51,177 bases of DNA from a virus (Duplodnaviria > Heunggongvirae > Uroviricota > Caudoviricetes): the IMG/VR virus record IMGVR_UViG_2579778634_000021; one strand, written 5' to 3'. A model generated the notes under the pieces. It searched no databases. It had not been told where the DNA came from and worked only from the letters and a program-made list of their open reading frames with translations. The position numbers were made by a program, and so were the translations under genes. How positions within the stretch are numbered: the first letter of the stretch is position 1; each line of letters starts with the position of its first letter. Of this stretch, positions 1,286-43,066 are shown piece by piece.

Positions 1286-1495
1286 AACCGCAGCACGTTC
1301 TTGCTTAAGACGTGCTGCGGCATAATCCCAATGATTACTCCCTGACAGGGTTCGTAGGCCACTCAATATCAGGTGCAGTTGATGTATCAACACGGTTCAG
1401 CAACACCCGATACTTTTTCCAGGCTTCCAGCAACGAGATTTCTTCCTCTGTTGCAATTTCCAGATCTGCAGCATCCTGAAGCGGCGCAATATGCT
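1286..1495. repeat. direct repeat copy B (tfa 3' end plus terminator hairpin)
   Basis: Partner of 235..450. Contains the 11-bp-stem hairpin ccgcagcacgt/acgtgctgcgg immediately after the tfa stop. Confidence 0.7.
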
Positions 1496-1919
1496 CGCTG
1501 GCTACCTGCATCAGGCTGTTTTTTGTTTCTTCCGCCTCCCGGATCCGGAACAGTTTTTCTGCTTCCGTATCCTTCACCCAGGCTGTGCCGTTCCACTTCT
1601 GAAACTCCCCTTCCGGCGATAACCAGGTAACATTTTCCGGTAACGGACCGAGTTCAGAAATAAATAACTCGTCCCCTGACGCTACGTCATAAACCGTTTT
1701 ACCCCGATGGTCTTCAACGAGATGCCACGATGCCTCATCACTGTTGAAAACAGCCACAAAGCCAGCAGGAATATCTGGTGGTGCAATATCGGTACTGTTT
1801 GCTGGCAGACCTGTATGAGGCGGAATATATGCGTCACCTTCACCAATAAATTCATTAGTTCCGGCCAGCAGATTATAAATTTTTATGGTCCGTGCTTGTT
1901 CACTCATTCTGAATGCCAT
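1335..1919 (-). CDS. tfa: tail fibre assembly protein Tfa
   Basis: 194-aa ORF directly downstream of the side tail fibre gene, with the start overlapping the stf stop. Conserved Tfa C-terminal domain. Confidence 0.85.
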
Positions 1920-4900: not shown

Positions 4901-5089
4901 CAGCAGGGTGACGCTGTACTGACCATGCTCAACATCCATGCTGTAACGTCCGGCTTCATCCGGATTTTCAGAGGCCACCGTGTTCACCACCACCGTGCTG
5001 CTGGTTCGTCTGGCCTTCAGCACAATGGTGCAGTTCTGTACTGGTTTTCCTGTGCCATCTTTAAGCACGCCAGAAATTTTTACTGTCAT
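1919..5089 (-). CDS. stf: side tail fibre protein Stf
   Basis: 1056-aa ORF with a lambda Stf-like N-terminus ([17 protein letters not shown]...), a long Ala/Ser/Thr-rich low-complexity shaft, and a C-terminal region with repeated GAHTHS/HxH motifs. Confidence 0.9.
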
Positions 5090-5907: not shown

Positions 5908-8900
5908 TCAGCTAATCGTGATGCCTGCAGTGGCTTTCTTCATCACCACAACCAGCAAATCGCTGATACTTGCTGTGGGATACCAGTTATTTACCAGCCA
6001 TGCTGACACCGAAAACTCCAGTGTCATGTGACCGTGACCGGCAGGCATATCAATAACACCACTGTAAATCAGCGTATTATCCAGCGCGGTACGGTTATAA
6101 ATTTCAGCACCGTTTTTCCGCACTATCAGACGGCATGAGGAGTAAATATCAGTATGCTCTTTCTCATGTTTAGCGCCGCTGAATGCCACCGCCGGAATAA
6201 CAATCTGCCGGTCAAACGGCTGATCGTCATAAACCCTGACGGTAATGGTTCCTGATGGCCACCGCTCCGGTGCACGGGAGTCCCGGGGGAAAGCTTTGCC
6301 CACTGTTTTAACGAGATCGCCTTCAATCTGGTTCGCGGACAATTTTCCCAGAACCCGACAGTTCTCGTTAATCGTGACGTTGTTGAGCGTCCCGGAGTTC
6401 GCATTCACGTTACCGCTGATATCGGCATTTTTCGCCGTCAGCCGCCCGTCCGGTGTCAGGGAAAATGCCGGAGGATTACCGCCGCTGGTAATGGTGGGAG
6501 CCGTCAGATATTTCAGGAACACTTCATTCATAAATATCTGATCGCCCTGACCAACAAACATCGGCTTTGTGTTGCCATTCGCAGGATTAATCATCGCAAT
6601 CCTGTCTGCCGCCAGCAGCACCTGACTCTGCATTCCTGCTGGCGTATTCTCAATACCGGCACCGATACCCGCAATATAAAGGCGTCCGTCCTGCATCTGC
6701 TGCAGTTTCACGGCCCACATGCTGTTCAGGTTATTATTTGTATCAACCTGAACTTTCTGTATCTGCTGGATTGCCGCACTCTGATTTTCCAGTTTTTTAT
6801 TGACGGTCTGCGTGATTTCATTGCTGACATTCGTAATGGACGTCCTGATTTCAGCCAGGTCCGGCGCAAGCTGACCGTTATCAATCTGCGTCCACAGCTC
6901 CTGGGCCAGATGTGTTTTCCCGATTTCTCCTTTGAAAAAATCCAGGTAACCTTCCGCATCATCGCTCGCCCGACCGACAGCCTCCACGAATGCCGATTTG
7001 CCAACAGTATTCACACTGCGGATATAAAAATAATAATCATGGCCCGGTTTGATATTGATACTGGCAGCTATCCAGTACAGCGCCGAGCCAAGATAGCGGG
7101 CTGCGGTTTCAACCTGCCTGATATCCGCAATCCGCTTTTCCGAGAACCAGAACTCAAACTGTACCGTCGGGTCATAAACGGCAAGATGTGGCGTTGCGGT
7201 TATCTGAAAATAGCCCGGCGTCAGCTCAATCCGCGACGGTGCTGCCGGTGCGGCAATCCGGAAGGTGGTGGTGGCAGGTTCACCCTGCTGGCCATAGCTG
7301 TTTATCGCCCGCACCGTCAGGGTGTATTCCCCGAGCGGCAGGCCGCTGAAACGGTGCTCCGTGTCTGCGGTGATGGCGGTGGTCACCAGTCTGGCATCCG
7401 TTCCCTTACCACTGGTCAGGCGCAGACTGAAGCGCACACCCTTCACCACCCGCGGCGTGTCCCATTTCGCCTGCGCCAGATACTGGCCGTCAGCTGCGCT
7501 CACCTCCACCGTCAGGTGCTGCACTGCCGGTGGGATGACGCTGTTCAGGGAACCTGACTGCGGCTCAAAGCGGGCACCGTTATCCACGATGGCTTCTTTT
7601 TCCGGTACGTGCTGCACCGCCGTGATGGCAAAGGTGCCGTCCGTGTTTTCCCGGATGGAGACACAGCGGAACAGGCGACGGCGCAGTGACGGCAGGGAGA
7701 GTCCCCACACCCCGTATGTCTCCACACCATCAGGCAGGGTACTGACCTGTATCCGGTCCGGCGCGGGGTGTGCGGTGATGTCCACACTCACCGGCTTACC
7801 GCTGCCGTTAATCAGGTTCACCGTCGATGCACCTGTCCCCGGAAGTGTCACTTCACGGTCCAGCGTCAGGGTGCGGGTGGCAGCATCAATGGACAGGACA
7901 CGTCCGCCGGTCAGGGTCCCGGCATAGTCGTTATCACAGATTTCAATGATGTCACCGGGTGTGTGCCGCAGCCCCTGAGACCCGAGTGTGAAATCCACCG
8001 TCTGCGTTTCCAGCAGTTCGGTCTTTATCACCCACAGTCCGGCACGGTGGGCCTGACCGCGGCTGGTACAGCCGAACGCGTCCATCTTCAGCAGGTTGCG
8101 TCCGTAGCGCAGTATGGCTTCCGGGTCTTCCACCAGTTCCGTGGAGGTCTGCCAGCCGTTCTGCGGGTCGGTGTAATTCACCTCCACCGCCGTGTGCCGG
8201 TCCTTCAGGGCACTGAAGCTGTAGCGGAACCCCACGCCGTTATCATCCACCACCACATCGCTGTTCGTGTACGGCCACACCACATCCGACGGGCGGTCCT
8301 GAACGAACGTCAGCGTCTGGCCGTTCCATACCGGCATACAGCGCATCGCCGAGCAGAAATCACTGAGAACGTCCCACGCCTTACGCTGTTGTGCCAGGTA
8401 CGCATTAAAGGTCATCCGCGGCTCGGTCCCCCCGAAACCATCCGGGACCGTCTGGTCGCAGTACTGCCCGATGGCATACAGCGCCCACTTGTCCACATCC
8501 GCCGCCCCCAGACGTTTTCCCATGCCGTAGCGCGGGTGAGTCAGCATGTCCCACAGGCACCAGGCCGGGTTGTTGCTGTATGCCGGTTTCAGACTGCCGT
8601 CCCAGATACCACTGTACGTGCGTTTTTCCGGGTCATAGTTTGACGGCACCTGGATGATGCGACCGCGGATATGGTAGTTCACCGTCATCTGCTGGCCGCC
8701 GAACTGCTCCGCATCCACCTGCAGCCCCACAATGGCCGTGTTCGGGTAGCACTGTTTCACATCGATGATTTCGGTGTATGACGACCACAGCGTCTTATTC
8801 TGCAGCTGGTCCGTGGTGCTGTCCGCCGTCTCCCTGACCATCCGGATGTTAAAGGGCCGGGGAGGCAGATTATCCAGAATCACCGAGGCCAGGAACTGTG

Positions 8901-9381
8901 AGGTGGTCTTGCCGTTAATGGTGACGTCCTTTTCCGTCACCCAGCGGCCATTACGCTGTAACTGAATCAGAATCCGGACAGAGGAAGGATTACGGTCGCC
9001 CTTTGACGTGGTCTGCACCAGTGACTGCACCCCGAAGGTAACCCGCAGGCGGTCAATGTTCGCGGACGTAATGGTACGCGTCACCGGTTTTGCCTTCGTC
9101 ACTTCCACGCCTGGTCCGGTTTCAGCTCCGGAGGACTCAAAGCCTTCCGGTGGTGTCTGCTCCTGCTCCCCGGCGCGCCAGACCGCCGTCACACCGTGTA
9201 TCACGGGATTGCCGTCCGTGTCCGTCAGTGGGGTTTTGTTCACCAGAATACTCTGCAGTCCCTTCACCGGACCTTCTATCGGTCCCTCACCAATCGCATC
9301 AATCACACTCATCATCTGCGTGGATTTGAGATTATCCTTCGCCTCACGAGGCGTGTGTGCCTTACCGCCACCTTTTCCCAT
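5908..9381 (-). CDS. J: host specificity / central tail fibre protein J
   Basis: 1157-aa ORF. N-terminus and overall length match lambda J. Confidence 0.95.
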
Positions 9382-9487
9382 ACAGCCTTCCCCTGAATAA
9401 ATTAACCGCCACTTGCCATTCCGTACAGAAGTCGGATATCCTTCGCCCGAAAAGCATGAAACACATTTCTGCCATGCTAAAGAGAAA

Positions 9488-9520
9488 CCCCGGTATCAGC
9501 AGATACCGGGGTTTTCTTTC
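9488..9520. terminator. intrinsic-terminator-like hairpin (possibly bidirectional) in the I-J gap
   Basis: 10-bp stem ccccggtatc/gataccgggg with a 4-nt loop, followed by ttttctttc on the plus strand and a U-rich run on the minus strand. Confidence 0.4.
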
Positions 9521-9586
9521 ATGCCCACCGATAATCCTGTTGGTTAAAACCGGTAATGGCATAAAAATTCTGAATATCTTCACATT

Positions 9587-9614
9587 TTCACACACTGACT
9601 GTGGCGCTTATAAT
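9587..9614 (+). promoter_or_regulatory. candidate sigma70 promoter (TTCACA, 16-nt spacer, TATAAT)
   Basis: Perfect -10 hexamer and a 4/6 -35 match with 16-nt spacing, on the plus strand, antisense to the tail operon. Confidence 0.3.
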
Positions 9615-9693
9615 TTCGCTGCGTTAGTGTTTTTTTGCCCGAGTAACAAAAACAACTCCTTAACATTGATCTTCATTTGTCTGTCCCCACAGC

Positions 9694-9719
9694 TCCGCGA
9701 TCACTGCGGGATTTTTTTA
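9694..9719 (+). terminator. weak intrinsic terminator (plus strand)
   Basis: Stem ccgcg/tgcgg followed by a T7 run. Confidence 0.35.
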
Positions 9720-9723
9720 TGTT

Positions 9724-10404
9724 TTATCCCTGTCGCCCGATAACCACGACCGTTCCGCCCCCGCCTTCATCACGGGTGCTGATGTCCTGGGATATACGGC
9801 GGGAGCCAACCAGCATTTCCCCGTAAGGCACCGGCATCGGGTTCCCCTGGGCAATCATGTTATCCAGCGAGGAAAAGTACGTGTTCTGTTTACCGTTATC
9901 CGTGCTTTTGTACTCCGGTGTTTTTGCCTTCGGGGCCAGCATCTGGGCCACACCGCCCAGTATCATGCTGGCCCCCAGTGAAAACAGCATCGTGGTGGCA
10001 GAAAAACCGCCGGCTGCCAGGGCTGTACCCCATAACGCCATCGAGCCTCCGGCAGTGAAGAAAGAGCCCACGATGGCTGCCGCCCCCAGCACAATCTGCA
10101 GTCCACCCTTTCCGGCCCCGGCCAGTCGCGGCACAATGTGGATGACCGTTCCCTCACCCAGCTGTTCGTGAAGACGGGCGTACACCGCCTCCGGTGCCGT
10201 GTCATCACCGGCAATACGTATCTGGTACCAGCCTTCGTTCATCTGACGGCGAAAGCCCGGCATCTGCATCGACAGGGCGCGGATGGCTTCCGCTGCCGTG
10301 TTCACATACAGGCTGAGGCGGCGGCCAAATCGTTGCAAATCCCCGTGAAGGCAGATGCGTGCCAGTGGCGGTGACGCCAGACAGAATGCGTTCGTCGTTG
10401 CCAT
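9724..10404 (-). CDS. I: tail assembly protein I
   Basis: 226-aa ORF with a lambda I-like N-terminus (MATTNAFCLASPPLARICLHGDLQRF). Located between K and J. Confidence 0.9.
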   Translation of the reverse strand: MATTNAFCLASPPLARICLHGDLQRFGRRLSLYVNTAAEAIRALSMQMPGFRRQMNEGWYQIRIAGDDTAPEAVYARLHEQLGEGTVIHIVPRLAGAGKGGLQIVLGAAAIVGSFFTAGGSMALWGTALAAGGFSATTMLFSLGASMILGGVAQMLAPKAKTPEYKSTDNGKQNTYFSSLDNMIAQGNPMPVPYGEMLVGSRRISQDISTRDEGGGGTVVVIGRQG

Positions 10405-30513: not shown

Positions 30514-30570
30514 CGCGCTTCCCGGCGCGGGCTTTTTTTTATCCAACAAGAAAGCCCCTCCGGAGAGGGG
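30514..30570. terminator. two back-to-back terminator hairpins
   Basis: cccgcgc..gcgcggg followed by T8 (plus strand), then gcccctccggagaggggc with a U-rich run on the minus strand. Confidence 0.5.
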
Positions 30571-30800
30571 CTGGAGAGTAGCGCTATGTACCGTTCATGC
30601 ATGGTGCAGGGTGCCTCCCGGTGAGTTCAGTATCAGCACCTGAACCCGCACCAGAAAGGATAAGGGGTGTGACCAAACACCTGTCGCTGATATGCCCCTC
30701 CGCACAGGGGGATTCACCATGCCATATTTTTTTAACAAACTTCCCGCTGGCCAGACAATAATCGCCAGCCTGAATTGTGAGTAACGTGGCATTTTACGGG
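30545..30800 (-). repeat. repeat unit 1 (about 250 bp, begins with the hairpin aaagcccctccggagaggggct)
   Basis: Shares several long blocks with 31025..31285, for example catggtgc.gggtgcctcccggt and gggggattcacc...tttttaacaaa...gccagacaat. Confidence 0.6.
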
Positions 30801-31024: not shown

Positions 31025-31285
31025 CTGCACAGAAAAGCCCCTCCGGAGAGGGGCTGAAGTATAGCCTAATTTCTGTCTGTCGCATGGTGCCAGGTGCCTC
31101 CCGGTAAATTCAGCCTGGCTACTGAATTTGCATGTTCGCTGGATCATACACTTTGCCAGATGCCCCGCCGCTGAGGGGGATTCACCACGCGATGCAATTT
31201 TTAACAAATTCTCCGGCAGCCAGACAATCATCAAGCTGTGGAATTGTGAGGTATTTAAAAATTTCGCAGCCTCTTGCCACCCGCT
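31025..31285 (-). repeat. repeat unit 2
   Basis: Same block order as unit 1. A degenerate third copy lies between them at about 30821..30960. Confidence 0.6.
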
Positions 31286-34834: not shown

Positions 34835-35112
34835 GACAACGCCCTCTGGTTGATGAATTTAACTATCACCACCGTCAGGTGCAAATCTTTGGGTGGTGAG
34901 ACGTACAGGGTTTGCACTACCGGATCAACCAACCGGCGAGCCTTTCGGCTCCCCCATACGCCCCACCATAATTCAGATGTGCGTGTGCTTACGACAACAA
35001 AAAACACGCTCGCGGCGTGTGTCTGTCGCGGTTGAATATCCGGGGTGCAAATCCCGACGCCAGATTTTGCTGGCGCGTGAGGAATATAGCCCCGAATAAA
35101 TCATCACGTCAA

Positions 35113-42861: not shown

Positions 42862-42925
42862 ATGCATACCAATAACGCTTCACTAGAGGCGTTTTCGTTA
42901 TGTGTAAATAAATAAGGAGCACACC

Positions 42926-43066
42926 ATGCAATATGCCATTGCAGGGTGGCCTGTTGCTGGCTGCCCTTCCGAATCTTTACTTGAACGAATCACCCGTAAA
43001 TTACGTGACGGATGGAAACGCCTTATCGACATACTTAATCAGCCAGGAGTTCCCAAAAATGGATAA
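42926..43066 (+). CDS. cIII: cIII (FtsH inhibitor)
   Basis: 46-aa [49 protein letters not shown], which matches lambda cIII. Not in the supplied ORF track because it is under 60 aa. Confidence 0.85.
   Translation: MQYAIAGWPVAGCPSESLLERITRKLRDGWKRLIDILNQPGVPKNG

Follow-up and report, generated by a model that had tools for sequence, protein, structure and literature searches.

We examined the spacer between tail genes I and J in a 51,177-nt stretch of DNA from a virus (Duplodnaviria; Heunggongvirae; Uroviricota; Caudoviricetes; IMG/VR record IMGVR_UViG_2579778634_000021); the whole stretch is referred to below as the window. The tail operon lies on the minus strand, and the spacer is built of two independent modules: a left module adjoining J, and a right module that carries a promoter and a terminator on the plus strand, antisense to the tail genes. 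A first-pass annotation, made from the letters of the window, had described an insert of about 340 bp at this position, with a plus-strand promoter, a hairpin followed by a T7 tract and an additional GC hairpin. The list of open reading frames (ORFs) and the Pfam assignments of the flanking genes confirm the insert, and the other features are all present where that annotation had placed them (Table 1). It had further proposed that the unit could specify a small RNA (sRNA) of about 100 nt. This part of the proposal agrees with our analysis, in which the promoter–terminator unit is very probably the gene for PasB, an sRNA of 83 nt as published and of 98 nt if counted from the predicted start. 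What the annotation did not recognize is that the sRNA had already been published, and it also missed the two-module make-up of the spacer.

PasB (E2348CN_0006) was described as a 'pathogenicity associated' sRNA encoded by prophage PP6 of enteropathogenic Escherichia coli (EPEC) O127:H6 E2348/69 (Pearl Mizrahi et al., Sci Adv 2021, PMC8550237). Table S6 of that paper lists it as an 83-nt RNA on the minus strand of NC_011601.1 (1466343..1466261), detected with the Northern probe AATCCCGCAGTGATCGCGGAGCT. The reverse complement of this probe matches the window at 23 of 23 positions (9691..9713, no mismatches), where no such match is expected by chance. A pairwise alignment with the E2348/69 locus (alignment A1) is near-identical from approximately position 9560 to beyond 9760. 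In E2348/69 the sRNA lies upstream of gpJ, 5 nt beyond the point at which the tail assembly gene stops, and is antisense to both; in the window five bases likewise separate the end of the terminator from the stop codon of gene I. Because the probe match is exact, the alignment is nearly base-for-base, and both the position and the antisense orientation are the same, the unit is very probably the pasB gene.

The two loci share an identical promoter and a U7 terminator. However, E2348/69 has a G at sRNA position 54, its spacer is 240 bp long rather than 342 bp, and it carries a different and shorter J-proximal module. The two differences within the sRNA itself are A9662 (sRNA position 27) and A9689 (sRNA position 54). 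The first of these is the base found in the PasB-2 variant, which is distinguished from PasB at position 27 (Zhu, Shabalina and Storz, bioRxiv 2026).

The pasB promoter scores 11 out of 12 in a consensus scan, which returned three promoter-like sites in 1.6 kb where 0.8 are expected. Transcription is predicted to start near G9621, approximately 7 nt past the TATAAT. The A/T-rich block that overlaps the -35 element could serve as an UP element or as a binding site for a regulator. At the other end of the unit, the terminator scan detected a stem at 9694..9710 followed by T7 at 9712..9718. One terminator-like site was found in the region against 1.5 expected, so that the site alone is not above chance; it is kept in every related locus. 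With z-scores of -0.3 and -0.1, the sRNA over its whole length folds no more stably than shuffled sequence. For the 98-nt form, pairing of the U-run with the A-run into a 5' hairpin is predicted, but these pairs are not conserved.

In EPEC, PasB was found by ligating and sequencing interacting RNAs (RIL-seq) and by Northern blot, and its length of 83 nt was taken from RNA-seq coverage and described as 'in agreement with approximate' Northern size (PMC8550237). In a delta-hfq strain its abundance is strongly reduced, with log2 fold changes of -6.8 and -2.4 under two conditions. RIL-seq recovered 37 distinct partners, 30 of which are coding sequences (CDS) or 5' untranslated regions (UTRs) and none of which is an sRNA, and nearly all of the partners are core-genome RNAs (accessory fraction 0.5–2%). 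PasB is expressed more highly under the non-activating condition, and its chimeric fragments number 1820 there against 258 in the virulence-activating condition. PasB is the second RNA in about 99% of its chimeras (PMC8550237). This placement is a hallmark of Hfq-dependent sRNAs.

A second set of published RNAs belongs to the same family. EcOnc22, EcOnc23 and EcOnc24 are plus-strand RNAs of approximately 85 nt on Northern blots that are destabilized in delta-hfq and derive from prophages Sp15, Sp14 and Sp11, respectively, of the enterohaemorrhagic E. coli (EHEC) O157 strain Sakai (Tree et al., Mol Cell 2014, PMC4104026, Table S2). We found that the I–J spacers of these three prophages (Sp15, locus L142 992..1231; Sp14, L143 623..862; Sp11, L144 673..912) are identical over 240 bp and that each contains a PasB homologue. 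The probe used for EcOnc22/23/24 matches the homologue exactly over a 23-nt core, while its other 10 nt differ by small indels, the probe text having been taken from a machine-read PDF. The cross-linking (CRAC) peak of EcOnc22 was reported on an older version of the genome record. Using the 60-nt AgvB1 RNA as an anchor, we obtained a shift between versions of +135 to +142 at 1.94 Mb; anchoring at EcOnc04 and EcOnc42 was not precise enough. The shifted peak falls at approximately 2902850..2902915, inside the homologue at 2902836..2902927.

EcOnc22/23/24 are therefore PasB homologues that form one family with it in the I–J spacer, a link made in neither of the two papers on PasB. They share with PasB the I–J position, the strand relative to the tail genes, the AUCUUC core, the CCCGCAG/CUGCGGG stem and the U7 tail. 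Unlike the PasB of the window, they are diverged alleles with the -35 region TTCTGAAACTCTTCACATTTCC and the 5' half GCAUUACUUUUUUGAUGCCUGAAAAAUAACUCCAUAACG, and they are accompanied by the short left module. The 'host specificity protein' gene next to the spacer has a length of only 1176 bp in Sp15 and Sp14; J is apparently truncated there, and the sRNA gene is intact.

Table 1. Features of the I–J spacer and flanking tail genes, in window coordinates
Feature	Coordinates	Strand	Description
Gene J ORF	5908..9381	-	1157 aa; six GpJ-specific domain families and Phage-tail_3 (Pfam)
Gene I ORF	9724..10404	-	Lambda_tail_I, 1.8e-16 (Pfam)
I–J spacer	9382..9723		342 bp; tail operon on minus strand; two modules
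Left module	9382..~9556		Non-coding; boundary from alignments A1 and A2 and partial BLAST matches
Right (PasB) module	~9559..9718		Partial BLAST matches cover query positions 177-342 only
J ribosome-binding site GGGGAAGG	9386..9393 (approximate)	-	J-proximal end of left module; read from sequence
Strong hairpin	9485..9520		10-bp G+C-rich core, 9488..9497 with 9502..9511; loop AGCA; A/U-pair extension
Promoter-upstream block GCATAAAAATTCTGAATATCTTCACATTTTC	9559..9589	+	31 bp, A/T-rich, overlaps -35; 29/31 positions invariant (A2, 16 spacers)
pasB sigma-70-type promoter	9587..9614	+	-35 TTCACA 9587..9592; 16-nt spacer; -10 TATAAT 9609..9614
Predicted primary transcript	9621..9718	+	98 nt; start from promoter position
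PasB sRNA	9636..9718	+	83 nt; annotation transferred from E2348/69, 81/83 identical (A1)
Candidate Hfq distal-face motif	9645..9656	+	AAC AAA AAC AAC, four A-R-N triplets; suggested by alignment A3
Second conserved pyrimidine motif AACUCCUU	9654..9661	+	
Conserved single-stranded core AUCUUCAU	9669..9676	+	Just upstream of terminator; columns A49 T50 C51 T52 T53 T56 (near-)invariant (A3)
Rho-independent terminator	9686..9718	+	Family stem CCCGCAG/CUGCGGG, 9686..9692 with 9704..9710; U7 9712..9718
Spanning ORF	9357..9743	+	128 aa
Spanning ORF	9362..9595	-	77 aa; gp9c call in phage ASU11 is 66 aa, 9362..9562

Distribution and conservation of the PasB family

Of 5426 complete E. coli genomes, 1612 contain the 342-bp spacer element, which none of the RefSeq records listed annotates. 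It also occurs in phage ASU11, which was induced with mitomycin C. Among phage records the whole spacer is rare, and its right half (query positions 177-342) matches 147 records, mostly Stx-converting phages, at 73–81% identity. A query with the promoter block recovered at least 120 viral contigs. The family set that we compiled contains 142 loci with 39 distinct sRNA variants; sixteen I–J spacers were aligned as alignment A2 and 25 distinct variants as alignment A3. The antisense context between I and J is the same in the 16 aligned loci. Related prophages had been named by the first-pass annotation as a place to look for the same insert, and the PasB module indeed occupies the I–J spacer in many prophages of the lambdoid and Stx kinds.

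A scan that covered each species with one genome returned only E. albertii, plus assemblies labelled Streptomyces, Asaia and various metagenome-assembled genomes. The family is Escherichia-restricted, in agreement with the published restriction of PasB to Escherichia and Shigella (Zhu, Shabalina and Storz, bioRxiv 2026). The sequence labelled Streptomyces flavalbus (NZ_JBHTEB010000006.1, locus L021) is a 3408-bp contig that carries the long module and a PasB variant, and is most likely E. coli prophage contamination. The Asaia platycodi sequence (L017) is a 546-bp contig that matches the promoter block. Two other matches outside Escherichia are unrelated chance matches.

Conservation within the family is concentrated in a few elements. 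The promoter-upstream block varies at only 2 of its 31 positions across the 16 spacers of alignment A2, although identity between their sRNA bodies is just 73–81%. The -10 hexamer of relatives is TATAAT, AATAAT, GATAAT or TATCAT (xATxAT), and the GCGTTA just downstream of it is nearly invariant. Within the sRNA, little or no variation occurs in the AUCUUC core (9669..9674), in the terminator stem of 7 bp or in the U-tail. Between the conserved elements there are at least three variant types, whose differences include indels that are not multiples of three. Amid this differing sequence, alignment A3 shows an invariant A at every third base, at sRNA positions 29, 32 and 35 (9649, 9652 and 9655 in the window). 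ARN motifs have been described as contacts for the distal face of Hfq (PMC4104026), and a periodicity of this kind is what an (ARN)n distal-face motif would give.

The RNAalifold consensus contains only the terminator stem, with 7 pairs, and leaves the AUCUUC core and the ARN stretch unpaired. One variant shows a compensatory change from G-C to A-U within this stem. The consensus fold thus has the architecture of an Hfq-dependent sRNA, with a 3' hairpin and U-tail preceded by a conserved single-stranded region. The occurrence of conserved elements amid divergent sequence is a pattern in keeping with a non-coding RNA that has a single-stranded seed and sites of contact with Hfq. From its conservation, the core AUCUUCAU is most likely the seed of PasB, and the seed has independently been placed just upstream of the terminator (Zhu et al., bioRxiv 2026).

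Two unusual arrangements were encountered among the family loci. At two viral loci, whose right-hand parts begin with TTCTGAATATCTTCACATTTTCACAAACTGAACCGCCCCGGGAATCCTGG, an insertion sequence lies in the spacer of the pasB promoter right after the -35 element and splits the promoter from the sRNA; the end of the insertion sequence resembles the IS629/IS3 family. At another locus (L056), the pasB promoter block is preceded at a distance of about 100 nt by a second PasB-like terminator (GCAGCTCCGCTAACTCTGCGGGATTTTTTT), which suggests two PasB-like units in tandem.

Several observations weigh against equating the unit in the window with a functional PasB gene. The published expression data come from the E2348/69 and Sakai copies, and expression of the window copy is a prediction. 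The 5' end as published (9636) falls 15 nt downstream of the one predicted (~9621) for the only good promoter, and no alternative -10 hexamer that could serve 9636 was found in the sequence. This points either to processing of the RNA after the U-run or to imprecision of an end that was set from coverage. Rfam 15 gives no match in the spacer at gathering thresholds, and with E-values of up to 10 it gives weak matches to unrelated sRNA families that are far below their gathering scores and mostly centred on the two hairpins. PasB also leaves the left module of the spacer unexplained. Finally, neither the two papers that name PasB nor a full-text search yielded a validated target or a reported target motif, and we therefore infer the seed and the regulatory outcome, including its direction.

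A further objection concerns the terminator. A9689 produces an A·C mismatch at pair 9689-9707, the fourth of the seven pairs in the family stem. None of the 141 other loci has an A at this position, and only 4 of 5426 complete genomes match the spacer at 100%; the window is the only row of the RNAalifold consensus with AC at this pair. The U7 tract and the 3' arm of the terminator are present in the window and the 5' arm is altered by this one base. With G, the family stem has a predicted folding energy of -12.6 kcal/mol; the alternative fold that forms with A reaches -8.7 kcal/mol, a value that includes a small upstream hairpin. The alternative stem has six pairs (9694..9699 with 9705..9710), of which two are G·U. 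The predicted fold thus shifts to a weaker alternative stem and therefore the terminator of the window may be weaker. In this way A9689 could impair termination, 3'-end formation or binding to Hfq.

The left module and alternative readings of the spacer

The left module was found in 1446 of 5426 complete E. coli genomes, with at least 99% identity in 1442 of 1451 matching records, and no diverged relatives of it were found among the 5426 genomes. The PasB alleles that accompany it differ. E2348/69 and Sakai Sp11, Sp14 and Sp15 lack it, and alignments A1 and A2 show an unrelated module of approximately 70 bp in its place there. Phage ASU11, having been induced with mitomycin C, carries the long module, which is consequently compatible with lytic growth.

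The principal structure in the left module is the hairpin at 9485..9520, with predicted folding energies of -27.2 kcal/mol (plus strand, z-score -6.6) and -27.1 kcal/mol (minus strand, z-score -5.6). U-rich runs follow the stem on both strands, making it terminator-like in both directions. On the minus strand it lies between the pasB region and the start of J and is followed by the U-rich sequence UUUCUCUUU. In the unrelated short module the corresponding position is taken by another hairpin, after which the minus strand reads UGUUUUUG. This second hairpin has the form ACAGGCAYCC-loop-GGRTGCCTGT and precedes TGTTTTTG on the sense strand of the tail operon (L001, the E2348/69 locus, 4925..4955, and L004-L015). 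Some loci show a compensatory change from C-G to T-A (U-A in RNA) in its stem and others a C·A mismatch. This hairpin resembles an intrinsic terminator and is located approximately 35–45 nt upstream of the start of J.

Two unrelated sequences supply this kind of hairpin at one position, which points to a function. The left-module hairpin would most likely act as a terminator or insulator in the sense direction of the tail operon, passed only by Q-modified polymerase. One locus (L102) has the long module with a clean loss of the hairpin between two TTTCT repeats and amounts to a natural deletion mutant. No minus-strand promoter that could use the hairpin as its terminator was found nearby at the threshold of the scan. 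On the plus strand there is a weak promoter-like site at 9413..9442 (9/12). Together with the hairpin at 9488..9520 it could define a second plus-strand RNA of about 75 nt, which is speculative.

These observations bear on a reading in which the spacer acts mainly in cis, its hairpin or hairpins stopping non-Q polymerase before J and PasB pairing with the I–J junction of the late mRNA and altering its processing or the translation of J. The strong minus-strand hairpins with U-rich runs that two unrelated left modules each place before J, and the compensatory change in the short-module hairpin, are in keeping with such a role, and by its position PasB is perfectly antisense to the late transcript. 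However, there is no promoter-like site nearby on the minus strand, the L102 locus exists without the hairpin, and PasB ends 255 nt from the J start codon and so cannot directly mask the J ribosome-binding site. The RIL-seq partners of PasB, moreover, are nearly all core-genome RNAs. We consider a mainly cis-acting spacer unlikely, and a cis role could coexist with a trans role of PasB. An attenuator within the tail operon, which the first-pass annotation had offered as its alternative, is neither favored nor contradicted by the analysis.

The remaining alternatives have still less in their favor. In the annotation of phage ASU11 the spacer encodes a hypothetical protein, gp9c, and both this 66-aa minus-strand ORF and the 128-aa plus-strand ORF are open in the window. 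Neither has a match in Pfam or PHROG, however, and neither has a recognizable ribosome-binding site as read from the sequence. Both cross the hairpin, and the plus-strand ORF also crosses the promoter and the sRNA. Among 54 near-identical copies of the long module the plus-strand ORF is 47, 58, 61, 63, 94, 96, 128 or more than 140 aa long, and the minus-strand ORF has few variants, mostly shifted or truncated. The first-pass statement that the spacer lacks a convincing ORF is thus borne out, and a small protein encoded here is highly improbable.

The first-pass annotation had also allowed for the insert being a decayed remnant of a known gene; it might equally be neutral filler in which the promoter and terminator arose by chance. 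The terminator-like site, which alone is not above chance, and the folding of the whole sRNA, which is no better than shuffled sequence, would agree with this. Yet the spacer has no protein similarity, and what it matches instead is an experimentally detected RNA, to which the probe match is exact. Conservation of the promoter block, of the seed and of the terminator stands against an identity as low as 73% in the remainder, and published Northern blots and RIL-seq of the E2348/69 and Sakai copies contradict the idea. We regard it as barely credible.

PasB might instead be a sponge of the AgvB type, in which the C/A-rich stretch AACAAAAACAAC mimics GcvB target sites and titrates GcvB. This stretch resembles the C/A-rich consensus of GcvB R1 targets, and AgvB is likewise prophage-encoded and has ARN motifs. 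However, the C/A sequence is not conserved between variant types, which keep only the A periodicity, and sRNAs account for 0 of the 37 RIL-seq partners of PasB. AgvB, moreover, is located at the PR' moron site, is 51–60 nt long and has a different conserved 3' domain. A sponge of this type is very unlikely. As candidates for the spacer element itself AgvB and AsxR were rejected, both being placed downstream of PR' in the paper describing them (PMC4104026), and the Rfam models for AgvB and AsxR (RF02702, RF02703) having no match in the spacer with E-values of up to 10.

The reading that we consider very probable is that pasB, a self-contained 'moron' that is non-coding, makes up the right half of the spacer. 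The host's sigma-70 RNA polymerase would, in a lysogen, initiate at TTCACA-16-TATAAT on the plus strand, opposite the silent late tail operon, and would stop at the hairpin and U7 tract to give a product of 83–98 nt, depending on the exact 5' end. Given its weakened terminator stem, the window copy may be produced less efficiently. PasB binds Hfq, with the 3' U-tail and the (ARN)4 stretch as likely contacts. The AUCUUC core, possibly together with ACUCCUU, would then pair in trans with many mostly core-genome mRNAs at coding or 5' UTR sites.

Related RNAs and implications

Matches to several other known RNAs were found elsewhere in the window. A C4 antisense RNA (34889..34973, minus strand) and an isrK Hfq-binding RNA (34999..35076, minus strand) lie 25 nt apart, well above the gathering score. 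This pair resembles an immunity RNA region of the P1/P7 type, here within a lambdoid prophage. The lambda cIII thermoregulator element is matched over its full length (42913..42971, plus strand, 88.5 bits), which identifies the immunity and early-left region as that of a lambda-like prophage. The STnc100 sRNA family is represented by two tandem copies on the minus strand (30542..30751 and 31027..31220), with scores of 129.9 and 138.7 bits where the gathering score is 47; a structural relationship between STnc100 and PasD has been reported (Zhu et al., bioRxiv 2026). Approximately 8 kb from pasB there is a full-length Rfam match to IS009 (1378..1576, minus strand, 223 bits), which is among the commonest Rfam matches near PasB (Zhu et al., bioRxiv 2026).

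PasB can be compared with two kinds of prophage element. Like PasB, AgvB and AsxR are prophage-borne, short, Hfq-binding RNAs that have their own promoter and terminator and are expressed in lysogens. Unlike PasB, they occupy the moron site downstream of PR', measure 51–60 nt, share a 42-nt 3' domain that is unrelated to PasB, and sequester another sRNA (PMC4104026). Lambdoid morons (Juhala et al. 2000, as cited in PMC4104026) resemble pasB in having their own promoter and terminator, in lying between conserved phage genes and in being expressed from the prophage. Classical morons are protein-coding and many are co-oriented with the flanking operon, whereas pasB is non-coding and antisense.

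The element is already known as PasB and, earlier, as EcOnc22/23/24. Added here are the coordinates in the window, the link between the names, the map of conservation, the rare stem allele and the modularity of the spacer. A real prophage sRNA gene could be recovered from a reading of raw sequence alone, and exact coordinates are now given for an element that is unannotated in the listed RefSeq records and missing from Rfam 15. The window copy is a natural terminator-stem mutant of PasB. In addition, the conservation features (the upstream block, the A periodicity, the AUCUUC core and the 7-bp stem) can guide the validation of targets.

The I–J spacer as a whole might be a two-part regulatory cassette, in which the minus-strand hairpin makes J strictly Q-dependent while PasB is titrated by the late mRNA on induction or guides its cleavage. 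We think this decidedly unlikely, but if true it would tie host regulation by PasB to the lysis–lysogeny state. For the family, the comparison unifies PasB, described from EPEC in 2021, with EcOnc22/23/24, described from EHEC in 2014, as one I–J spacer family of lambdoid and Stx phages.

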